Shown piece by piece: positions 46,107 through 59,959 of a stretch of 64,000 bases of DNA; positions within the stretch are counted from its first letter, which is position 1; each line of letters begins with the position of its first letter. The notes below the pieces were generated by a model that was not told the origin of the DNA, did no database searches, and saw nothing but the letters and a program-made list of their open reading frames with translations. Location: the NCBI GenBank assembly GCA_040389905.1, contig JAZJZK010000041.1, positions 18,798 to 82,797 on the forward strand, given 5' to 3'. This DNA comes from Gemmatimonadota bacterium (GTDB lineage Bacteria; Gemmatimonadota; Gemmatimonadetes; Gemmatimonadales; Gemmatimonadaceae). A program made the translations under genes and the position numbers.

Positions 46107-47267
46107 GTGCCAATCGCAGTTCCGTTCGACCGCTCGCGTGTTTCCGATCCTTCCCTCCAGCCCATCGCGGAGAAGGTCATCGCCGGCGAGCGGCTGACGG
46201 ACGCCGACGGCGTAGCGCTCTTCCGCACGCCTGACCTCCTCGGACTCGGCGCGATGGCCGATGCGGCCAATCGGGCCCGCAACGGCAACATCGTCACCTT
46301 TGCCGCGAACCAGCACATCAATCCCACGAACGTCTGCATACTCCGCAAGACGTGCGTGTTCTGCTCCTACGCCCGCCTGCCGAAAGAAGCCGGCGCGTAC
46401 CGGTACACGATGGATCAGGTGTGGGAAGAAGCGGCCAAGGTCGATGCCAACATGACCCGCGAGTTCCACATCGTGGGCGGGCTCGACATGCAAGCGGGGC
46501 TCGCCTACTACGACGAGATGTTCCGTGGGCTGAAGGCGCGACACCCGCAGGTGCACATCAAGGCACTCACGGCGGTCGAGATCGCGCACATTGCGCGTAT
46601 CGAGAAGATGTCGGTTGCCGACGTCCTCGTTGCGCTGCGCGATGCGGGGCTCGATACGATGCCGGGCGGCGGTGCGGAGGTGTTCAGCCCAGGCGTCCGC
46701 GCGACCATTGCGGAGAAGAAGCTGTCCGGAGAAGAGTACATCGATGTGCACCGCACGGCGCACGCCCTTGGAATTCGCTCCAACTGCACGATGCTGTACG
46801 GCCACGTGGAGACGTTCGAGGACCGCGTCAACCACCTGAGCATGTTGCGTGATCTTCAGGACGAAACGGGCGGATATCTGGCCTACATCCCGCTGGCCTA
46901 CCATCCGGACAACAACGAGCTCGGAGTGGAACTCGGCCGTACCGGCACGGCGACCACTGGCTTCGACGACCTCAAGAACCTCGCCGTCGGCCGCCTCTAT
47001 CTCGACAACTTCACGCACATCAAGTCGCATTGGATCATGGTCACGCCCGCGATATCGCAGATGTCGCTGCATTTCGGCGTGAATGATCTCGAAGGCACGG
47101 TGGTGCGCGAGAAGATCTATCATGAGGCAGGCGCCCACACGGCGCAGGCGATGTCGCTCGACGAAATCCTCCGGCTCATTCGCGGTGCTGGAAAGATCCC
47201 TGCGGAGCGCGACTCGTTCTACAACGTGCTCCGGATGCTCGACGAACCGCGCGCCGAGGCGGCGTAG
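46107..47267 (+). CDS. mqnE: Aminofutalosine synthase (radical SAM)
   Basis: NPTNVC(x4)CVFC, EFHIVGG, MPGGGAE, TMLYGH, HIKSHW; adjacent to mqnA and mqnC. Confidence 0.88.
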   Translation: MPIAVPFDRSRVSDPSLQPIAEKVIAGERLTDADGVALFRTPDLLGLGAMADAANRARNGNIVTFAANQHINPTNVCILRKTCVFCSYARLPKEAGAYRYTMDQVWEEAAKVDANMTREFHIVGGLDMQAGLAYYDEMFRGLKARHPQVHIKALTAVEIAHIARIEKMSVADVLVALRDAGLDTMPGGGAEVFSPGVRATIAEKKLSGEEYIDVHRTAHALGIRSNCTMLYGHVETFEDRVNHLSMLRDLQDETGGYLAYIPLAYHPDNNELGVELGRTGTATTGFDDLKNLAVGRLYLDNFTHIKSHWIMVTPAISQMSLHFGVNDLEGTVVREKIYHEAGAHTAQAMSLDEILRLIRGAGKIPAERDSFYNVLRMLDEPRAEAA

Positions 47268-47270
47268 GGT

Positions 47271-48107
47271 ATGCGCGTCGGTCGCATTCCCTATATCAAC
47301 TGCTATCCGGTTTACGGTGCGATCGACAGAAAGCTCATCGAGCTGGATGCAGAACTCGTCGACGGCATCCCCACGGCGCTCAACCGCGCCATGGCGGAAG
47401 GGTCGCTCGATGTCAGCGTCATTTCCGCGGTTGAGTACGCGCGAGATGCCGCGCGGTATCTCCTACTTCCCGATCTCGCCATTTCGTGCGATGGACCGGT
47501 GCGCAGCGTGATGTTGTTCTCACGACGGCCCGCCGAGTCGCTCGAGAGCGCACGGGTGTTGGTGAGCAGGAGTTCGATGACGAGCGTGGCACTTCTTCGG
47601 CTCATGTTCGAGCACGTCTGGCGATCGTCGCCAACCTTTGTGCCGTCGAATGCGGAGATATCAGATCTCGCGCGGGAAGGGACGGAGCCGCACGAGGCGC
47701 GACTCATCATCGGTGACGCGGCCTTGATGCTCTCCTCAGGGACGAGCGAACTCGCGGCAGACTATCCGTACGTGTACGACCTTGGCACCGTCTGGAAGGA
47801 ATGGACGGGCTTGCCGTTCGTGTTCGCGGTATGGGTGGCGCAGCGTTCGACTCCCGTCGCCAGTTCGCTGGCCGTTCACGCTCGGCTGATCGAATCGCGG
47901 GAGTGGGGATTGGCGAATTTGCCGCAGCTTGCGCTTGAGGCATCCATCGCGACGGGCGTCTCAGGACAGGCAGCGCTGGAGTATCTTTCAGGTCTCGACT
48001 ACGGTTTGCGATACGAGCATCTCGCTGGCCTGACGACGTTTTTCGGGAAGCTCGCAGCAAGTGGCCGAGTGCCGAATGGGTCGCTGGCCTTCCTGCCGGC
48101 GGCGTAG
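47271..48107 (+). CDS. mqnA: Chorismate dehydratase (futalosine pathway)
   Basis: RVGRIPYINCYP, GPVRSV, SMTSV, IGDAAL, DLG..W...TGLPFVFAVW. Confidence 0.92.
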   Translation: MRVGRIPYINCYPVYGAIDRKLIELDAELVDGIPTALNRAMAEGSLDVSVISAVEYARDAARYLLLPDLAISCDGPVRSVMLFSRRPAESLESARVLVSRSSMTSVALLRLMFEHVWRSSPTFVPSNAEISDLAREGTEPHEARLIIGDAALMLSSGTSELAADYPYVYDLGTVWKEWTGLPFVFAVWVAQRSTPVASSLAVHARLIESREWGLANLPQLALEASIATGVSGQAALEYLSGLDYGLRYEHLAGLTTFFGKLAASGRVPNGSLAFLPAA

Positions 48108-48125
48108 CAGTAAAGCAACGCATTA

Positions 48126-48203
48126 ACCACAGAGGACACAGGGGACACGGAGGAAACCATGGTTAACTACGCAGTCCTCTGTGACCTCTGTGTCCTCTGT
48201 GGT
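48126..48203. repeat. REP-like palindrome (family B), second copy
   Basis: accacagaggacacaggggacacggagga ... tcctctgtgacctctgtgtcctctgtggt. Confidence 0.85.
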
Positions 48204-48238
48204 AAAAACGGCCCGCCAAGAGATAAGGCGAAATAGCA

Positions 48239-49273
48239 ATGCGTGACCTCCTCGATTTCTACACCAACGCGCCCCTGCTCGAGCTGGGCGCTGAAGCGGA
48301 TCGCGTGCGTGAGCGTCTGCATCCGCACAACACGGTCACGTACATCGTCGACCGCAACATCAACTACACCAACGTCTGCGTCGCCGACTGTGGGTTCTGC
48401 GCCTTCTATCGTCGCCCGAAGGACGCGGAAGGCTGGACGTTGTCATACGAGCAGATCGGCGCCAAGATCGACGAGACGAAGGCGCTTGGCGGTGTGCAGA
48501 TCCTCATGCAGGGGGGGCACAACCCGTACATCCCCTTCGAGTGGTACCTCGACCTGCTGCGATACATCAAGCGCAACCATCCCATCCACGTGCATGGCTT
48601 CAGCCCGAGTGAAGTGGACTTCTGGGCAAAGCTCTATCGCATGGACGCACGCGAGGTCATTCGGGAGTTGCAAAAGGCCGGACTCGATTCCATTCCGGGC
48701 GGCGGCGGCGAGATCCTGGTCCAGCGTGTCCGCGACGAGGTCGCGAAGAAGAAGGCGGGCGCCGATCGATGGCTTGAAATCATGGAGATCGCCCATCAGG
48801 AGGGGATGAAGACCTCCGTCACGATGATGTACGGCATTGGCGAGACCTTGGCGGAACGACTCGAGCACCTCGAGCGCGTGAAGGAAGTGCAGGCGCGCAC
48901 CGGCGGGTTCACCGCATTCATCTGCTGGCCGCTTCAGCCGGAGAACACGCCGCGCATGTCGCACATGCAGAAGACGGACGCGCTCGATTATCTGCGCACC
49001 GTCGCCATTTCGCGAATCGCGCTCCAGAACGTCCCGAACATTCAATCGAGCTGGGTCACGATGGGGATGAAGGTCGGGCAGACGGCGTTGCGATTCGGCT
49101 GCAACGACTTCGGCTCGCTCATGATCGAGGAGAACGTCGTGTCGGCGGCGAATACCACGCACCGAACCTCGATCGAGGAGATGGAACGCCTCATTCGCGA
49201 CGCCGGCTTCACGCCGGCACGGCGCCGTCAGGACTATTCGATCATCGCGCCGGCCGCTGCTGTTGCGGCGTGA
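48239..49273 (+). CDS. mqnC: Cyclic dehypoxanthinyl futalosine synthase (radical SAM)
   Basis: VTYIVDRNINYTNVCVADCGFCAF, QGGHNP, FTAFICW, NIQSSWVT, EENVVSAA. Confidence 0.93.
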   Translation: MRDLLDFYTNAPLLELGAEADRVRERLHPHNTVTYIVDRNINYTNVCVADCGFCAFYRRPKDAEGWTLSYEQIGAKIDETKALGGVQILMQGGHNPYIPFEWYLDLLRYIKRNHPIHVHGFSPSEVDFWAKLYRMDAREVIRELQKAGLDSIPGGGGEILVQRVRDEVAKKKAGADRWLEIMEIAHQEGMKTSVTMMYGIGETLAERLEHLERVKEVQARTGGFTAFICWPLQPENTPRMSHMQKTDALDYLRTVAISRIALQNVPNIQSSWVTMGMKVGQTALRFGCNDFGSLMIEENVVSAANTTHRTSIEEMERLIRDAGFTPARRRQDYSIIAPAAAVAA

Positions 49274-51881: not shown

Positions 51882-53371
51882 GTCGTCGTGCACTAGCGCT
51901 CGTCCTGCTCTTGCCGGCGCTTGCCGAGGCGCAGACCGTTAGCGTTGGCGTCGGCGCCGAGCGCCGGTCGGCGGCGTTCATCACCGAGGCGAACTCGCAG
52001 CCGCATGTTGTGATCGCGGGTGAGGGACGCGTCGAATTTCCGCGCGACAGCACGATTACATCGACGCTCATCGTCATCGGTCGCCCGACCTATCTCTCCA
52101 GCAAGGTCGAAGGGAACGTCGTCGTCATAGGAGCCGACTTGTTCTTGCGACCCGGCTCTGCTATTCGCGGACACGCCGTCGCCATCGGCGGTACGGTTGC
52201 GGTGACGACGCTCGGCACCGTTGGCGGTCGGGTCGAGAGCTACCGCGACGATCAATACGAGGTGCGTCAGGTCGCAGGCGGGTACCTGTTCGACTACCGT
52301 GCGCCCCTGGTGGTCGCGTCCTCCGTTCCTCTTGTGCAGCCCGCTGGATTGATGGGTCTGCTCTTACCCTCGTACGACCGGGTGAATGGGCTCTCGCTGC
52401 CTGTCGGGGCCCTCTTCGCGTTGTCTGAGGGAAAGCTGGAGGCCACGCCGACGGTGACGTACCGCTCTCGGCTTGGTGCACTCGATCCCGGAGTACGCCT
52501 CCGCATCAACCCGGACGGCAAGCTTCGGCTCGACGGCACGGCCGGTTACGATACCCGAACCAACGAAGGCTGGAATTATGGCGACCTGGTCAATTCCGCG
52601 ACCACCTTTTTCGCCGGGAGTGACACGCGAAACTACTTCCGCGCGAAGGGCGGCGTTGCCCGCGTGATTGGCCGTCTTGAATCAGTCGGCCGGACGATCG
52701 AGCCATTTGCCGGCGGTCGCTTTGAACGCTTGAGCGCAATATCCGCCGGGTGCAATGTGTTCACCGTGACCGGGCGCAAATCGGTCGAAAAGGCCTGTCG
52801 TCCGAATCCAGCGGTTGATGCTGGCGACATCGGTTCGTTGCTCGCTGGAGCGCAGCTCTGGGACACGTCGGGCGTGGTCGTAAGTCGCGTGCGCGCGGAG
52901 TTGGAACGGAGTGTCACGAGCGTCATTGGCGCCTCGAATTTCACGCAGCTGACTTTTGACGGGCGCATCGGATTCCCCACCTTTGGAACGCAGTCGCTTC
53001 ACGTGCGCGGTCACGCAGTCGCCACTATGGGGGACAAGGTGCCGCTCGCGCGGTACGCGTATCTTGGCGGGAGCGGGACGCTGCCGGTCACCGAACTCCT
53101 TGAATTCGGGGGTACGCAACTTCTTTTCGTGGAGTCTCGGTACCTGATCCCGGTGCCAGCGGTGCAACTGCCTTTCGTGGGGTCTCCGATTCTCACGCTG
53201 CGACATATCCTTGGCGGAGCGGGAGTTGGATCGTTACCGAAGCTGGAGCAGGAGGTCGGCATCGGATTGGGGCTGAGCGCTTTGCGCATCGATCTCACGG
53301 TCGACGCCTCGCGCCATCGCGATAGCCGGCTGCTTGGGAAGCTCGGGTTCGGGATCTCGTTGACGAACTAA
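51878..53371 (+). CDS. Exported protein with a short beta-helix-like repeat region and a probable outer-membrane beta-barrel
   Basis: Signal peptide (LAEAQ); VEGNVVVIGADL/IRGHAVAIGGTV repeats; amphipathic strands after YDRVNGL. Confidence 0.6.
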   Translation: MSRRALALVLLLPALAEAQTVSVGVGAERRSAAFITEANSQPHVVIAGEGRVEFPRDSTITSTLIVIGRPTYLSSKVEGNVVVIGADLFLRPGSAIRGHAVAIGGTVAVTTLGTVGGRVESYRDDQYEVRQVAGGYLFDYRAPLVVASSVPLVQPAGLMGLLLPSYDRVNGLSLPVGALFALSEGKLEATPTVTYRSRLGALDPGVRLRINPDGKLRLDGTAGYDTRTNEGWNYGDLVNSATTFFAGSDTRNYFRAKGGVARVIGRLESVGRTIEPFAGGRFERLSAISAGCNVFTVTGRKSVEKACRPNPAVDAGDIGSLLAGAQLWDTSGVVVSRVRAELERSVTSVIGASNFTQLTFDGRIGFPTFGTQSLHVRGHAVATMGDKVPLARYAYLGGSGTLPVTELLEFGGTQLLFVESRYLIPVPAVQLPFVGSPILTLRHILGGAGVGSLPKLEQEVGIGLGLSALRIDLTVDASRHRDSRLLGKLGFGISLTN

Positions 53372-53761
53372 GCAACTTAAGCAACTTCATATTTCACAGA
53401 GGGCGCAGGCTCGACAGCTGCTTATCTCACCGACACGGCGCCGGAGCGCGCTTGCCGCCGGCTCACTCCTGCCGACGACTGGACCCCGCCACTTCCGCTG
53501 AAAGCAACTGTGCCGTCAGTCGCGTAACCCGTGGCCGTGCATCGCGGTGCGGATTGGAAATCACACCGTGCACATACGCGGTTTGGAGCGCCTCCCCTCG
53601 CCGTTCTCGACAGCATTGAGCTGCGCGCAGGGAGACACGAACCATGAGTAGCGGTCTGAGCATTAGGGTGCCATTGGATGATTCGTTTGTGATTGATTTG
53701 TGTCTTGCGAAGACATTTTACAAGTTGTAGCGTTGGGTCGTCACCTTCAGCCAGGACAACC

Positions 53762-54007
53762 ATGCGTTACAAACGGTTAATCGCTCGTGCCGCTCTTGTC
53801 GTCGGACTGGGAGCAGTCGCATTGGTGACGGATAAGCCCGTTGCCGCCGCGACTCCCATGAAGTGTTCGACGGCAACGTATTGCGATTGGAGTTGTACGA
53901 ATCCTTGCTCAGGTGGCGGTGTTTGCATTAAGTCCTGCAGGCCGGAAGCGTGCTGGTTCGAAGGTACGCAGTACTCGATTAGGATTTATTGCGATGGGGT
54001 GTCGTGA
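53762..54007 (+). CDS. Secreted cysteine-rich peptide (81 aa, 8 Cys)
   Basis: AGGA RBS before the ATG; Sec signal MRYKR-hydrophobic-PVAAA; mature part C-x5-C-x3-C-x3-C-x5-C-x3-C-x4-C-x12-C. Confidence 0.75.
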   Translation: MRYKRLIARAALVVGLGAVALVTDKPVAAATPMKCSTATYCDWSCTNPCSGGGVCIKSCRPEACWFEGTQYSIRIYCDGVS

Positions 54008-54086
54008 CGTGAGGGGCATGTTGTTTGTGGAAGGCGGCGCGCCAAGGAAGGCTGAATGTCGGAGAGCTGCTCGCTCTTGGCGCGCC

Positions 54087-54461
54087 GTGAGTTATCGTGC
54101 TCTGTTGTTTTCCTCGATCCTAATCCTGGCGATGCCGCGCAACGCCGCCGGCCAAGGGGGGGGGCGTGAGGATACAATGGCGGACTCGAGCTGGGTATCC
54201 GAGCGAATATTGAAGGTCAGCTTTGCCGGGATTAAGCTTTCACCCGATGAGGAGAAGGCCGCTCGGGGGGTCATTCGAAGGATATTCGTTGCGCTCATGT
54301 CATTACCGCGCAATTTGGAGTACGGGTCTCCTAAGATCGTCGCGTTGTGCGAGCAGCGCGATGCGGCGCTCCTTCAGCTGGTGCACTCGCGGGCAGACAG
54401 TGTCCGATACCTCGACAACTCGGAGATATTCTGTGGCCCGAGAAAATCATCGCGGCGATAG
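54087..54461 (+). CDS. Small exported helical protein, Spy/CpxP-like
   Basis: GTG start; signal peptide YRALLFSSILILAMPRNAAG|Q; FAGIKLSPDEEKAAR...RDAALLQL resembles LTxxQ helical-hairpin proteins; two Cys. Confidence 0.55.
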   Translation: MSYRALLFSSILILAMPRNAAGQGGGREDTMADSSWVSERILKVSFAGIKLSPDEEKAARGVIRRIFVALMSLPRNLEYGSPKIVALCEQRDAALLQLVHSRADSVRYLDNSEIFCGPRKSSRR

Positions 54462-54536
54462 TATCCGGGAATGTCGTGGTGCGTTGCGCCTGCCATCTTC
54501 CGTTAGCACGTGTCTTGATCCTCTTAGGCGACTCCC

Positions 54537-55232
54537 ATGAAAGATCGCTTCGAGCGCATAGTCTCCCTGTTGCTGACGGTGGCCGCAGTTGGAATCGCCG
54601 TGGGGCTCGTGCATCGCGAGTTCTTTTCCGCTCCCCCGGCAGTCGTCGCACGTCCGGCGCTGCCAGCATGGGAGGAAGATTGGAAAAGCATGATTTCTGC
54701 TGGTGAACGGTCTGGAGATCCCGGCGCACCAGTGACGATCATCGAGTTTTCTGATCTGGAGTGTCCCTTCTGCGCGATCTTTCACAAAAGCTTGAGAGAG
54801 CTCATTGCGGAGAATCCCAAGCGGATTGTCGCGTACTTCGTGCATTTGCCCGCACCCAGTCACCGGTTTGCCATGCCTGCTGCGCGGGTGGCTGAGTGTG
54901 CGCGCGCTCGGGGCCACTTTCACCCGTTGGTGGACGAAGTGTTTGCGCGTCAGGACTCCATCGGGCTGCGCAGCTGGAATTCGTTCGCTCGCGCCGCCGC
55001 GATTGCCGACACGACCGGCTTTGACGCTTGTGCTCGTGACACGAGCGATGTACCTCGCATTGTGGCCGGGCTGTCGATGGGTCAGCGTTTTCGCGTAAAC
55101 GCCACGCCGACGATCATCATCAATGGCTGGCGCGTCGAGGGTGCACTGTCGAAGTCGGAACTCTCGAAAATGATTGATGCTATCACGAGTGCAAAGGCAC
55201 CCTATTCCGACGCGCAGAAGGCCATCCTTTAG
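54537..55232 (+). CDS. Membrane-anchored DsbA/BdbD-family thiol-disulfide oxidoreductase
   Basis: N-terminal TM; GDPGAPVTIIEFSDLECPFC; cis-Pro loop VNATPTIIING. Confidence 0.9.
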   Translation: MKDRFERIVSLLLTVAAVGIAVGLVHREFFSAPPAVVARPALPAWEEDWKSMISAGERSGDPGAPVTIIEFSDLECPFCAIFHKSLRELIAENPKRIVAYFVHLPAPSHRFAMPAARVAECARARGHFHPLVDEVFARQDSIGLRSWNSFARAAAIADTTGFDACARDTSDVPRIVAGLSMGQRFRVNATPTIIINGWRVEGALSKSELSKMIDAITSAKAPYSDAQKAIL

Positions 55233-55257
55233 GTGGGTTCTGGTGTCGCTCCCCTCG

Positions 55258-58200
55258 ATGGTGTTAGCGACCCTCGCGTGTGCTTTGTGCCTGCCTGTGG
55301 TGCTTCTTGGCCAGACGCTTGTGCTGCGCGGCCGCATTACGGGGAGTGATTCGGTGGCGCTGTCTGGCGCGTCGATCAGCGCTACGAACTCGGTTGGGCA
55401 CTTGGTCGCGACACGCTCGCAACAGAATGGGGACTATCGCATCGCCCTCGACGGCCGCGACACCATTTATGTGCTGACAGTTACGGCGCTGGGGTACGCA
55501 CCGGGCAAACGCGTACTTCGCATCTCCGCACCCCGCCCGGACCAAGTCATCGCCGATTTCACGCTGACGAGCGCATTGGCGACCCTTGAACCGGTCATCA
55601 CGGTCGCTACCCGCCCACGCCCGCCTCGTGACGAGGACGGATTGTTTCGAACGCCTGGGCAAACGCGTTATGAGGTCGACGTCTCGAGTGGAGTTGCGGG
55701 TAGCCTGACTGGAGATCTTTTCGCTGCGCTTGGGATGGTGCCCGGTCTCGTGCGCACGCCGAGTGGAAGCGGAGCAATCGCGCTCTCTGCCTTCGGACTG
55801 TCGGCCGAGCAGAACGGGCTCACGCTCAACGGAACGGCCTTTCCCGGTTTCAGCCTTCCTCGAGATGGTCTGTTTCATCAGGTACGACTATCGACATATG
55901 ATCCAAAGTACGGCCGCTACGCAGGCATTCAGGTTGCGTCCTCACTACCATGCGGCTGTTTGGATCCGACTCGCAGGGTGCGCGTTTCAGCGGACGGTGT
56001 GCGGTGGCACCAGCCGGGCGACCAGGGTTTCGGTTCGCGCGTACTCAGCGGTGTTGTATCGGGAGAGATTCGGGCGGAGCGGTCCTTCTATTCCGTGGCC
56101 TATCAAGTCACGGACCATCGCGCTGTGACTCCCACAGCCTTCTCTCTCGACGCGCGATCTCTTGGAGCGCTTGGCATCAGCTCCGATTCGATTGCGCGCG
56201 CGCGAAGCCTCGCGGCGTTACTCGGGCTACCAGCGGGCTCTGCGAGGCCGGTCGACGCTGGCACAACGACGGGATCTTTGCTTGTGAGGGTGGACCTGAC
56301 TCCCGGACCGGTGCCTGCAGTAAACGCGATGCAACCGACGGCCTACGTCCTCGCGGCAGCGGCGCTTTCTCGCTCGGCCAGGCCCGGTGCCAGTTTGCCG
56401 TCCTCGTCGCTGCAGAGCGGCGAGTACTCGCGGCGCGACGCTCAGCTGCTGCTTGTATTTGCCCCGTACTTGCTCGACGCCTTGAATGAAACGAAGGCTA
56501 GCCTGTCGATCTCGCGAACCGACGGCAGGCCAAATTCACCTCTGCCTCGCATAGAAGTCCAAATCCCGTCTGGGCTCGGCGCGTCCGTAGCGGCGCCCGT
56601 TACCATAGTTCAGCTTGCCGGAGGTGGTCAGGCGAGAACCTCGGAAGAGAGTTCGGCTCTGCAGGTCACCAACGAGACATCGTGGATGACGCGTGATGGC
56701 GGCCACAAGTTCCAGATCTTCGGTGACGTGGTCGCTACGAGCTTCTCGAGCCGTACCACGGCGAGTTCCGCCGGGCGCTACCTGTTTACCTCGCTCGCCG
56801 ACCTGGAGAGTGGGCGGCCATCCCTGTTTTCGCGGACGATGGGCGAAGCCAGCGTGCGCGGCTCTCTAATTCAGGGAGTAGTCGCGATCAGCGACATCGT
56901 GAAGACGAACAACACTGCGAAAGCACAGGAGGGTGCGCGCGGCGAGGATTTCACGCTTCAATTTGGCGCCCGAATCGAAGCCGAGCGGTTCGGCGATACG
57001 GCTCGGCTGTCGCCGGCCATTCAGTCAGCCTTTGGCGTCGGGGATGGTTCACTGCCTCTCTCAATCTCAATCTCGCCCATGCTCGGCTTCACTTGGACGA
57101 AGGGGTACTATCAGGAGGACGTTCCGGGAGGTGGATGGTTTACCGCAAATCGTCACTACGTGACAGGAGGGATCAGGGCGTATCGAGGCGCGGTCTCTGT
57201 TCAGACGTACTCGCACGCGCGACAGCAGACAGGTGAGGCCGCATCGCCGAGCACACTCCAATGCATCGGGGTTAGCGCGCCTGTCCCGGACTGGTCTTCA
57301 ATCGTGGACCCGCGAGTCCCAGCACCGAGCGACTGCGTCCAGGAAGTAGGCGGCACCTTCCCGCGCGCACTATCCTCCGTGACATTGTTCGCGCGAGATT
57401 TCAATCCGCAGCGCAGCTGGCGTTCGGAGTTGAATTGGCGATATCGCGCGTCAGGCAGGGTGTATCTGACGGCTGCCGGCAGCTACGCGCTGAGTCTCGG
57501 GGGCATCCAGTCGTATGATTTGAATTTCGACGGCACCCCGAAAGCACACCTCGGTTGGGAAAAGGACCGCGAGTTATATGTCTACCCCGAGTCCATCGAT
57601 CCGCAATCCGGAATGCTTTCATATGGCGGTTCGCGAGCGCTGAACGGTTTCGGTGCGGTTTCCGAACTACGCTCCGATCTCAGGTCCGAGCAGTATCAGA
57701 CGACCATCGGGGTCGAGTACCAGATCGGCCGGTCCGTCGGAACCAACGCAGAATCCCCGGACCGGAATCGCTTTACAGGGACGTTCCGAGGCAATTACAC
57801 ACTGGCGGGCGGCCGGGCGCAGTCGACTGGCTTTTCCGCATCGACCGCCGGTAATCCGCGGCAAATGGAGTGGAGTCGCAGCTCACAACCGCGGCACACT
57901 TTACAGGCAGTGCTGACCGGACAGCTCGACGGCTGGTTTGCACTTGGCGCTTCCGCGCGCTGGGCTTCGGGCATGCGCTACACACCAATCGTTTCCACAG
58001 ATGTTAACGGCGATGGCTTCGCGAATGACCGAGCTTTCGTAGCGGATCCCGCGGCGGATTTGGACACGACGCTAGCTGGCGGAATGCGCGCGCTGCTGGC
58101 GCGCGCGCCAGCGTCCGCGCGCGAGTGCTTGAGCCGCCAGGTTGGAAAAATCTCCGGTGACAACTCATGTGTGGGGCCCGGAAGCGTGACGCTTGGTACA

Positions 58201-58974
58201 ATCTCGGTCGAGCTGGACTCATATCGCATTGGGTTGGGGAACCGTGGAAGCCTGACGCTTTATCTGGAGAATCTCCCTAGTGCGGTCGACCAAATCCTGC
58301 ATGGTGCGAGGGAGCTGCGCGGCTGGGGGCAGGGAGCCTATCCCGACCCGGCCCTGCTACACGTGAGAGGCTTTTCTCCGTCCGAAATGCGCTTTCGGTA
58401 TCTCGTCAACCCATCGTTTGGCTCGACGACCGCCGAGCGCTTCCTGTACCGCGCGCCCGCCAGACTAACGGTTGACGTTCGCTTCGATATAGGGCAGGAC
58501 GCCGAGACGCGCGGCATCGAAGAAAGCGTCAGGCTCGCAAAACAGGCCGATTTCAATGCCGACTCGGTTCAGCTGGGGAAGTTTCTGATGCGACTAGCCC
58601 AGCCGAGGCTTTCCAGTGACATGTGGGCAATTCTCAGGGTCAAGGATTCGATTGCGCTGACCGCCGATCAGGCGGACCGCATCGAAAGCGTGCAGCAATG
58701 GTACAAGCAGACATCCGATTCGGTGTACCGAAGCCTCGGCAACTTCCTATTCAGCCGGCAGGGCAGATATGGAGGAGAAGGGGTGCGCGCACGATGGCAT
58801 GAGGCGATTAGCGTCTCGGTGCGCGCGGGCGTGGCCGCGAGCGAGAGCGCCCGGGAAATTCTAACAGCTGAGCAATTGTCCTGGCTTCGCTCTCGAAAGA
58901 TCGCCCGAGGGCTGTTTTTCTCGCGCGAGTGGCTGGAACGAACCCTGAGGGGCCCCCTCACGCTTCCGCGATAG
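55258..58974 (+). CDS. Large outer-membrane receptor-like protein (carboxypeptidase-regulatory-like N-domain, plug-like region, beta-barrel, C-terminal LTxxQ helical domain)
   Basis: Signal peptide; LRGRITGSD...YVLTVTALGYAP; GLSAEQNGLTLNG; YTPIVSTDVNGDGFANDRAFV; tail LTADQ...ILTAEQ; start approximate. Confidence 0.75.
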   Translation: MVLATLACALCLPVVLLGQTLVLRGRITGSDSVALSGASISATNSVGHLVATRSQQNGDYRIALDGRDTIYVLTVTALGYAPGKRVLRISAPRPDQVIADFTLTSALATLEPVITVATRPRPPRDEDGLFRTPGQTRYEVDVSSGVAGSLTGDLFAALGMVPGLVRTPSGSGAIALSAFGLSAEQNGLTLNGTAFPGFSLPRDGLFHQVRLSTYDPKYGRYAGIQVASSLPCGCLDPTRRVRVSADGVRWHQPGDQGFGSRVLSGVVSGEIRAERSFYSVAYQVTDHRAVTPTAFSLDARSLGALGISSDSIARARSLAALLGLPAGSARPVDAGTTTGSLLVRVDLTPGPVPAVNAMQPTAYVLAAAALSRSARPGASLPSSSLQSGEYSRRDAQLLLVFAPYLLDALNETKASLSISRTDGRPNSPLPRIEVQIPSGLGASVAAPVTIVQLAGGGQARTSEESSALQVTNETSWMTRDGGHKFQIFGDVVATSFSSRTTASSAGRYLFTSLADLESGRPSLFSRTMGEASVRGSLIQGVVAISDIVKTNNTAKAQEGARGEDFTLQFGARIEAERFGDTARLSPAIQSAFGVGDGSLPLSISISPMLGFTWTKGYYQEDVPGGGWFTANRHYVTGGIRAYRGAVSVQTYSHARQQTGEAASPSTLQCIGVSAPVPDWSSIVDPRVPAPSDCVQEVGGTFPRALSSVTLFARDFNPQRSWRSELNWRYRASGRVYLTAAGSYALSLGGIQSYDLNFDGTPKAHLGWEKDRELYVYPESIDPQSGMLSYGGSRALNGFGAVSELRSDLRSEQYQTTIGVEYQIGRSVGTNAESPDRNRFTGTFRGNYTLAGGRAQSTGFSASTAGNPRQMEWSRSSQPRHTLQAVLTGQLDGWFALGASARWASGMRYTPIVSTDVNGDGFANDRAFVADPAADLDTTLAGGMRALLARAPASARECLSRQVGKISGDNSCVGPGSVTLGTISVELDSYRIGLGNRGSLTLYLENLPSAVDQILHGARELRGWGQGAYPDPALLHVRGFSPSEMRFRYLVNPSFGSTTAERFLYRAPARLTVDVRFDIGQDAETRGIEESVRLAKQADFNADSVQLGKFLMRLAQPRLSSDMWAILRVKDSIALTADQADRIESVQQWYKQTSDSVYRSLGNFLFSRQGRYGGEGVRARWHEAISVSVRAGVAASESAREILTAEQLSWLRSRKIARGLFFSREWLERTLRGPLTLPR

Positions 58975-59386
58975 CCGATCCGAGCGCGGCTTCCGTATTG
59001 ACATCTGAATGGTCGGGCTGGACGTTTTGGGATGTCGCGAATCCGCTTCGTCGAAAGGTTTAATACGCCGAGGTCGGTGCAAATTTTCGCACTGCTCGCG
59101 GTTTTGCGCGCGACGCCCGGGTTGGGGCAAGATCCTTTCGGGGGAGCGGGGATCGGTGTGACAGGTGCAGTTGCACTGGCGAACCCCGATCTGTACAAGC
59201 CAGGGACGATGGATTCTGCTGGCGTTCGCATGCCTTCCGCGCGCGCCACTCGGCGCCAGCCACGTCCGCCGTTGGTTGTCGACGAGAGCGACGCGCTGAC
59301 GCGTGCGGGCCTTGCGGCGACAGCTCTACTGATCATCGGTCTTGGCGTTCTGGCTCGTCTCAGCAGCGATCGCGGCGCCGAACAAC

Positions 59387-59415
59387 TTGACCCTCCCCGG
59401 GCCACCCTGTACGTT
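59387..59415 (+). promoter_or_regulatory. Sigma70 promoter of rimP-nusA-infB
   Basis: TTGACC - 17 bp - TACGTT. Confidence 0.6.
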
Positions 59416-59445
59416 GTCAGGGTGGTCCCGTAAAACGGGCCGCGG

Positions 59446-59474
59446 AATGTGGGGGATGCTCCCCACATTTTTTT
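59446..59474 (+). terminator. Terminator-like hairpin in the rimP leader (possible attenuator)
   Basis: aatgtgggg-gatgct-ccccacatt running into a T tract, 26 nt before the rimP ATG. Confidence 0.7.
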
Positions 59475-59500
59475 ATTGCCGGACGTGCCCTAGAGACAAC

Positions 59501-59959
59501 ATGAACGAATCGCTGGAACGTGTTGTCGCGCAAGGACTTGATGAGGTTGAGTACGATCTCGTCGAACTTCGCCAGGGAGGCACGCGCTCTCGGCCGGTGC
59601 TCGAAATCCGCATCGACCGGCGCGATGGTCAGAAGGTGACCGTCGACGACTGCGCGCGCGCCTCGCGTGCGCTGGAGGCGCGGTTGGACGGCGGCAGTCT
59701 CGTGTCAGATCGGTATGTGTTGCAGGTGTCGTCCCCTGGTGAGCGTCCGCTGCGGACGCCCCCCGAGTGGCGACGTTTCGTCGGTCGTTGGGCCAATGTC
59801 CTGGCGCCCGACTTCGGTGGCCGCTTCGAGGCCGAAATTGTTCACGTGGACGAAGAGGCTGATGGTGGTGCGGTCACGCTCCGTCCGGAGCGTGGCGGCG
59901 AAAAAAAGATTCCGCTCGCCGCCATCAAGGAGGCGAGGCTGGCGTTCCGCATGTCTTAG
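59501..59959 (+). CDS. rimP: Ribosome maturation factor RimP
   Basis: YDLVEL, VTVDDCARASR, YVLQVSSPG; lies before nusA. Confidence 0.93.
   Translation: MNESLERVVAQGLDEVEYDLVELRQGGTRSRPVLEIRIDRRDGQKVTVDDCARASRALEARLDGGSLVSDRYVLQVSSPGERPLRTPPEWRRFVGRWANVLAPDFGGRFEAEIVHVDEEADGGAVTLRPERGGEKKIPLAAIKEARLAFRMS

Follow-up and report, generated by a model that had tools for sequence, protein, structure and literature searches.

A recurrent peptide–DsbA cassette of Gemmatimonadota with a candidate outer-membrane route for its cysteine-rich mini-protein

We analyzed a 64,000-nucleotide stretch of a Gemmatimonadota bacterium genome (assembly GCA_040389905.1, contig JAZJZK010000041.1, positions 18,798 to 82,797; hereafter, the window), in which four consecutive genes encode a cysteine-rich mini-protein precursor, a small exported helical protein (the second open reading frame, ORF2), a membrane-anchored DsbA-family oxidoreductase, and a TonB-dependent-type outer-membrane barrel. 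This cassette is real and recurrent, and it is undescribed as far as the literature searched extends; no description was found there, most subscription papers lying outside the search. Comparison of related loci identifies the peptide and the DsbA as the conserved core. Our best reading of the window copy, offered tentatively, is that the DsbA folds the peptide and the co-encoded barrel then exports the folded product.

The peptide–DsbA core

The window DsbA (54537..55232, plus strand; 231 amino acids) combines an N-terminal hydrophobic anchor with a CPFC motif at residues 76-79, a TP pair at 190-191, and a second cysteine pair, C121/C165. It belongs to the DsbA family by its match to PF13462 (E = 3e-25), with PF01323 also over the cut-off, and its profile matches solved DsbA/BdbD structures at E values of 1e-31 to 1e-20. 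Residues C76, P77, C79, T190, and P191 are invariant among 13 DsbA sequences. In a tree, a branch with support 90 set the 22 control DsbAs, together with a single cassette copy (L169), apart from the rest; by sequence, the window protein is assigned to an accessory subfamily apart from the housekeeping DsbAs. The CPFC motif is also common in the controls (7/22). A second DsbA of the genome adjoins a VKOR gene on contig C23, and the two are likely the general oxidation pair. PF02600 was not found in this 85% complete genome, nor was a dedicated DsbB/DsbI partner found within the cassette.

Matches to the window DsbA at E ≤ 1e-20 occurred in 9 of the 41 genomes searched, its own included. Around the other matches, 10 of 14 loci contained a cysteine-rich ORF with a signal peptide according to a strict detector, and two more (L022, L025) were positive by inspection. 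For a larger sample, a profile built on the 13 DsbAs was run against 301 genomes from the phylum. The top-scoring rows from genomes other than the seeds supplied 60 regions as the test set, from which one duplicate (L166, the same as L123) was dropped to leave 59. The control set comprised 20 regions around lower-ranked rows in which the match does not include the N-terminal anchor, representing housekeeping DsbAs, and 150 random 8.7-kb windows of the source genome, scanned with the same detector, provided the background. Genome tallies include unpublished rows (G186, G419, G517, G559, G012), of which the locus-level claims are independent.

A cysteine-rich ORF with a signal peptide lay within 4 kb of the DsbA at 47 of 59 test loci, compared with 0 of 20 controls. 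Since the detector fired in only 7 of 150 random windows, the linkage exceeds chance. Counting one locus per genome, the peptide lies beside the DsbA in 26 of 34 genomes. The test loci include kin and are not independent, hence no p-value is given. Looser criteria reveal a peptide at four of the 12 negative test loci, and at one the upstream sequence is just 19 bases long. A scan of genome_contigs retrieved mostly generic DsbAs (detector hits, 14/80), with real-looking same-strand peptides only in Gemmatimonadota records. An earlier note on this DNA, made from the sequence alone, had proposed a dedicated peptide and DsbA pathway, and the recurrence of exported cysteine-rich ORFs beside this DsbA subfamily supports it.

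Cysteine parity points the same way. Counted from residue 21 on, the number of cysteines is even in 77 of the 80 peptides collected (31 with six, 41 with eight), as full disulfide pairing predicts; genome-wide detector hits, for comparison, split into 13 even and 12 odd counts. Locus L163, whose peptides repeat those of L162, was omitted from the peptide set alone. Given the linkage and the even counts, it is highly probable that the cassette DsbA oxidizes the peptide. The peptide sequences are highly variable, with several different cysteine spacings; 69 of the 80 are net acidic, the window peptide being neutral, and divergent tandem pairs occur at L117, L118, L126, L132, L135, and L169. One genome (G035) carries five DsbA cassettes (L016-L020), each with a different cysteine-rich peptide. 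Genes for AraC-like (HTH_18) regulators, two of them confirmed by Pfam, lie near L016, L022, L027, L115, L116, L124, and L154.

Swappable partners of the core

In the 6.5 kb around each test DsbA, a beta-propeller gene was present at 38 of 59 loci, a CarboxypepD_reg-type protein at 17, and a barrel at five (four whole, one in pieces). MacB/FtsX-type permeases lay within 1.5 kb on the same strand at seven test loci and no control locus; propellers, CarboxypepD_reg-type proteins, and barrels were likewise absent from the controls. The barrel is accordingly retained as a cassette member, as the earlier note had it, but outside the core, as one of several interchangeable partners, among which the propeller is the commonest. 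Three of seven cassette propellers scanned match PF17170, and 13 of 44 lack any cysteine.

The cysteine-rich peptide

The peptide gene (53762..54007, plus strand) encodes, as claimed from the sequence, an exported 81-amino-acid precursor with eight cysteines. A predicted Sec signal peptide of ~30 residues ending in A-A-A precedes a mature part of ~51 residues. All eight cysteines lie past the hydrophobic signal peptide, with spacing 5-3-3-5-3-4-12 and a net charge of 0. There was no Pfam match, a direct homologue search recovered only the peptide itself among nine candidates of a large protein search, and Atlas hits scored under 0.9 without indicating a family. BLAST relatives were found among the cassette peptides (best, L114, L201, and L256; E values 2e-11 to 6e-8), where the window peptide shares its leader and spacing with an 8-Cys group. 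For 20 aligned cassette peptides, no sequence family in Pfam, NCBIfam, or PDB scored above the cut-off.

An AlphaFold2 model contained a small beta-sheet at low confidence (predicted local distance difference test score [pLDDT], 67; predicted template modeling score [pTM], 0.32). Foldseek searches with this model returned nothing at E ≤ 0.001; its seven rows were all alpha-defensins at non-significant values (E 2-7, probability ≤0.05), and VIA-align gave no match at Z ≥ 2. The cysteine-stabilized alpha-beta (CS-alpha-beta) defensin motif reads C...CxxxC...C...CxC, and knottins (inhibitor cystine knots) have a six-Cys knot, commonly with an adjacent CC. The window peptide is small, cysteine-rich, and exported, like bacterial and eukaryotic defensins and knottins, and its low-confidence model shares a small beta-sheet with them. 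It differs in having eight cysteines, no net charge, and neither CxC nor CC. The spacing thus excludes membership among the CS-alpha-beta defensins, the model gave no structural match to a knottin, and the label "defensin/knottin-like" used in the earlier note finds no support in the motif. A related cassette peptide, L021 (spacing 7-3-11-6-1), does fit the CS-alpha-beta motif.

Elsewhere in the source genome, a second cysteine-rich exported protein of 140 amino acids (L276:83-2741; G000:C12, ~186300-188960, minus strand) has six cysteines in its N-terminal half followed by a C-terminal extension, with no DsbA adjoining. It is flanked by genes for 337- and 403-amino-acid proteins that appear propeller-like by eye and gave no Pfam hit. 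CarboxypepD_reg-like genes follow, and insertion sequence (IS) elements and a duplicated block lie nearby.

The small helical protein ORF2

ORF2 (54087..54461, plus strand; ~124 amino acids) has a signal peptide from its probable GTG start at 54087. Fifteen other proteins match it at E ≤ 0.001, making this a real small family with signal peptides, and homologues sit between the DsbA and the barrel at L201, L253, L254, and L256 and also occur at L264 and L265. The earlier note called it Spy-like. Three of four rows of a profile search against PDB were CpxP (E = 0.097 and 0.17) or Spy (E = 0.77), which hints at such a relation; PF07813 was not matched among the 15 family members, and an Atlas lead (score 0.75) had LTXXQ on 14% of its members. 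ORF2 as a detached copy of the C-terminal domain of the barrel was considered and rejected, since HHalign gave a probability of 1.4% and control windows scored at least as well.

In a second type of cassette, the ORF2 slot is held by a small exported PDZ protein, the PDZ domain being a peptide-binding fold. Because the same slot holds this domain elsewhere, a role for ORF2 as a peptide-handling accessory would fit. Hits of the ORF2 profile under ~55 bits were stand-alone proteins or parts of M56 proteins, outside cassettes. Weak ORF2-like matches lie in the C-terminal part of BlaR1/M56-type proteins at L236, L237, L243, L244, and L247, two of these proteins being confirmed as PF05569.

The outer-membrane barrel

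The barrel gene (55258..58974, plus strand; 1,238 amino acids) has an uncertain start: the signal peptide read from 55258 lacks a basic n-region, and in-frame starts are available from 55174. The protein comprises an N-terminal CarboxypepD_reg domain, a predicted plug and barrel, a C-terminal helical domain, and two conserved cysteine pairs. PF13620 (CarboxypepD_reg; residues 23-104, E = 2e-8, over the cut-off) is the sole Pfam match on the window protein, and only the N-terminal 200 positions match solved structures, namely TonB-linked receptors and SusC (E = 2e-11). Among the homologues listed, most match PF25183 and some match PF07715, PF00593, or PF07813, the last marking the C-terminal helical domain as LTXXQ-like. 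From these matches on homologues, the window barrel is classed as a TonB-dependent transporter of the Oar subclass that carries the helical domain as an addition. The genome has ten TonB_C matches, none within the cassette.

This barrel family is a common one: the source genome has five further copies, none of them adjoining a DsbA, and among the 40 top-scoring homologue regions a single one has a DsbA and peptide. In this barrel-centered set, five of six detector hits look like wrong-frame noise and were excluded, as were those at L270 and L273. A widespread pair at 32 of the 40 loci (within L190-L229) consists of an Oar-type barrel with a C-terminal LTXXQ-like domain and a downstream beta-propeller gene.

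Within the clade of the window barrel, the cassette recurs. In trees, this barrel groups with those of L201, L253, L254, and L256, loci found through ORF2 that show the peptide-DsbA-ORF2-barrel set. As a prospective test, 11 new loci were picked by barrel similarity alone. Three fell in the window clade, and all three show cassette genes: ORF2 and barrel at a contig start (L264), a frameshifted 8-Cys peptide gene with DsbA, ORF2, and barrel (L265), and peptide, DsbA, propeller, and barrel (L274). The other eight lack a DsbA. The peptide gene of L265 (L265:4692-5000) is split over two reading frames, by decay or assembly error. IQ-TREE analysis of 25 selected rows recovered the clade with a Shimodaira-Hasegawa-like approximate likelihood ratio (SH-aLRT) of 99, and all eight members with known context lie in cassettes.

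A second cassette clade (L022, L111, L112, L116, L128), separate in the tree, has barrels accompanied by a DsbA, the small PDZ proteins mentioned above, and 4-6-Cys peptides. Four further cassette barrels lie elsewhere in the tree (FastTree, with long-branch warnings). Because cassette barrels fall at separate places, barrels were likely recruited to cassettes several times.

Proposed mechanism and its alternatives

The peptide, ORF2, DsbA, and barrel genes form one predicted operon, and their products suggest a route. The precursor would be exported via Sec and cleaved after A-A-A, the step of which we are most confident. In the periplasm, the membrane-anchored DsbA would oxidize the mini-protein to four disulfides and would itself be re-oxidized by the VKOR of the genome. 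ORF2 might serve as a holding chaperone, the step of which we are least confident. The Oar-type barrel would then carry the folded peptide outward across the outer membrane, and the peptide, once released, would function outside the cell as a ligand or effector that varies between strains. That the barrel handles the peptide at all is somewhat probable, and if it does, outward is the likelier direction of transport. The fullest version, an undescribed phylum-wide system of hypervariable mini-proteins in which a dedicated TonB-barrel lineage exports four-disulfide peptides with a Spy-like chaperone, is more doubtful than export itself.

Export is favored because the barrel is predicted to lie in one operon with the biosynthesis genes and because PopC is secreted by Oar, which has the same N-terminal PF13620 extension (PMC6434023, PMC11658791). 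It is favored also because MacB-type permeases adjoin other cassettes and MacAB-TolC exports STII, a Sec-exported and DsbA-oxidized peptide (PMC5985334).

Several observations weigh against this route. Characterized TonB-dependent transporters are mostly importers (PMC6434023, PMC11658791). No barrel lies within 6.5 kb at 54 of the 59 test loci of the DsbA subfamily, which means that a linked barrel cannot be a general requirement for exporting the peptide, and most top-scoring barrel paralogues have a propeller as their partner, in keeping with an uptake module. The eight clade members with known context are not independent (three share one genus), and they include the L264 locus with ORF2 and barrel only, the L254 contig that ends inside the DsbA, and the frameshifted peptide gene of L265. 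Seven further clade proteins (P0005-P0010, P0015) lack known context. The chaperone assignment for ORF2 rests on E values of 0.1-0.8.

A close rival, though unlikely taken by itself, makes the barrel a receptor or importer for the folded peptide, as a self/kin signal or scavenged-ligand carrier, with the peptide leaving by another route. Import is the usual role of TonB-dependent transporters; the propeller is the commonest partner of both the cassette and the barrel loci; the weak ORF2-profile matches in BlaR1/M56 proteins hint at a ligand-sensing domain; the prevailing acidity of the peptides is unlike that of cationic antimicrobials; and the two cassette barrel clades go with different peptides, 8-Cys here and 4-6-Cys in the PDZ-linked clade. 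However, a receptor would leave the cassette without an exporter, no sigma/anti-sigma or two-component genes lie beside the window copy, and a secretion role has been shown for the Oar subclass.

The barrel and ORF2 might instead be passengers in a mobile cassette that never touch the peptide, with the peptide and DsbA as the real unit. In keeping with this, cassette-adjoining barrels occur at several tree places (five changes), the L028 barrel nests among non-cassette copies, and the window copy sits at an inferred inversion breakpoint. Yet an entire clade of barrels, whose members have diverged far from one another and come from four genus labels or more, is restricted to cassettes in which gene order is shuffled but content kept, and we consider passengers improbable. 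Much the same low probability attaches to the peptide as a disulfide-bonded subunit (plug, lid, or assembly factor) bound to an envelope partner and not itself cargo. Its gene is nearly always co-oriented with exported partners, and the scaffold type tracks the barrel clade; against a subunit, the partners (barrel, propeller, CarboxypepD_reg proteins, permeases) have no structural kinship, tandem pairs of divergent peptides exist, and barrel paralogues lack a peptide in 39 of 40 loci.

Least probable by far is a DsbA that serves only the cysteines of the barrel or propeller, with the small ORF incidental. The two conserved cysteine pairs of the barrel would give such a DsbA a substrate, and DsbL, also a CPFC protein, is dedicated to a large co-expressed enzyme (PMC8405906). 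Both pairs, however, are present in 40 of 41 barrels of the barrel-centered set, where DsbA accompanies one locus in 40; the pairs being family-wide even without a DsbA nearby, the DsbA is not there for the barrel. Cysteine-free propellers, and the peptide as the most constant neighbor of the DsbA, add to the linkage counts by which this explanation is largely refuted. Two outcomes that the earlier note had named as fatal to its proposal were looked for, namely, an absence of linked peptides and a DsbA acting only on barrel cysteines; neither was found.

Comparison with known systems

By analogy, the arrangement would work as a substrate-dedicated DsbA joined to a two-step route resembling that of STII and to a barrel resembling Oar. 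Oar of Myxococcus xanthus shares PF13620 with the window protein and the plug and PF25183 barrel matches with its homologues, and in both cases cargo would wait in the periplasm (PMC6434023). The window barrel differs in its extra LTXXQ-like helical domain and in lacking adjoining exbB/exbD/tonB genes, and the proposed cargo is a 51-residue disulfide peptide instead of a 51-kDa protease (PMC6434023). Escherichia coli STII, routed through Sec, DsbA, and MacAB-TolC, likewise has a signal peptide, periplasmic disulfides, and a second outer-membrane step (PMC5985334), and MacB/FtsX-type permeases stand beside 7/59 related cassettes. There is no meaningful sequence relation (one of 20 peptides matched PF08090, at E = 0.02), and in contrast to STII, a DsbA paralogue is linked here, the proposed exit is a TonB-type barrel, and nothing suggests an animal toxin. 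With both DsbL/ASST and the pair SrgA/PefA, the cassette shares an accessory DsbA co-encoded with its substrate while other DsbAs exist in the genome, and with DsbL the CPFC motif (PMC8405906); here, the proposed substrate is a hypervariable mini-protein and the DsbA has an N-terminal membrane anchor.

Related cassettes resemble NVEALA loci in placing a small exported Cys-containing protein beside a DUF5128-like propeller, whereas the window copy has no propeller. NVEALA proteins (PF14055) are small proteins of Bacteroidota encoded beside six-bladed propellers (PF17170), and PF14055 matched none of 20 cassette peptides. A classical cluster for a ribosomally made, post-translationally modified peptide (RiPP) was also considered; a family scan found no leader-binding tailoring enzyme or peptidase-ABC exporter among the cassette genes, in agreement with the view that no classical RiPP class applies. 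Radical-SAM-like ORFs at 46107-49273, 4.5 kb upstream, lie within what we take to be a housekeeping block.

Gene layout and genomic context

The four ORFs are intact and co-oriented on the plus strand with signal or anchor segments, just as originally described. Positions 52000-59247 are covered, with zero differences, by a single contig from the probable source run, although these are not independent data. GC content at third codon positions is 0.58-0.69 in the cassette genes versus 0.70-0.80 in four flanking housekeeping genes. The intergenic leader (53372..53761, no strand) is AT-richer near the peptide start, where hand counts of 27/60 and 29/60 GC proved exact, and has AGGA ahead of the ATG. 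No plus-strand sigma-70 consensus was found in this leader, and promoter and terminator counts in the region are at chance level. A hairpin between the peptide gene and ORF2 was not significant (z = -0.83), and searches gave no Rfam match and no meaningful repeats. An exact 14-nucleotide direct repeat, at 53849-53862 within the peptide gene and 54528-54541 across the DsbA start, is probably due to chance.

The first terminator-like site downstream of the barrel gene is a plus-strand hairpin at 59444..59471, with 12 pairs then a T run; six such sites were found in the region against 6.0 expected, and this one is distinguished only by position and length. It follows an ORF at 59032-59433 (118-133 amino acids), between the barrel gene and rimP, that has no Pfam or NCBIfam match and no counterpart beside rimP in 29 relatives. 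As it precedes the hairpin, this ORF may belong to the cassette.

The cassette lies between an outer-membrane gene and rimP (window 53371-59501). In genus relatives, counted by eye, a cytidylyltransferase gene comes after the upstream outer-membrane gene at 28 of 29 loci, and a Cu-oxidase_4 gene precedes rimP at 27 of 29. In the source genome, the cytidylyltransferase and Cu-oxidase_4 genes are instead joined on contig C4 (G000:C4:17340-19092), and in genome G108, both anchors lie ~95 kb apart on opposite strands. From these positions, we infer that one ~95-kb inversion relative to the genus relatives, with the cassette at a breakpoint, would account for the layout.

Significance

Animals, plants, and fungi are the best-known sources of disulfide-rich mini-proteins. 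Sampling within a single phylum here adds ~80 bacterial disulfide-type peptides, every one accompanied by an oxidase of its own, and the dedicated DsbAs could serve the folding of multi-disulfide peptides. The barrel variant makes it testable whether TonB-dependent transporters export cargo beyond PopC, with a 5-kDa substrate, and the four-gene cassette is small enough for expression in E. coli, where Oar is reported to work. If the proposed export is true, the cassette would represent a new peptide secretion route, and its variable peptides would form a large natural library of bacterial disulfide scaffolds acting as strain-specific signals or effectors.

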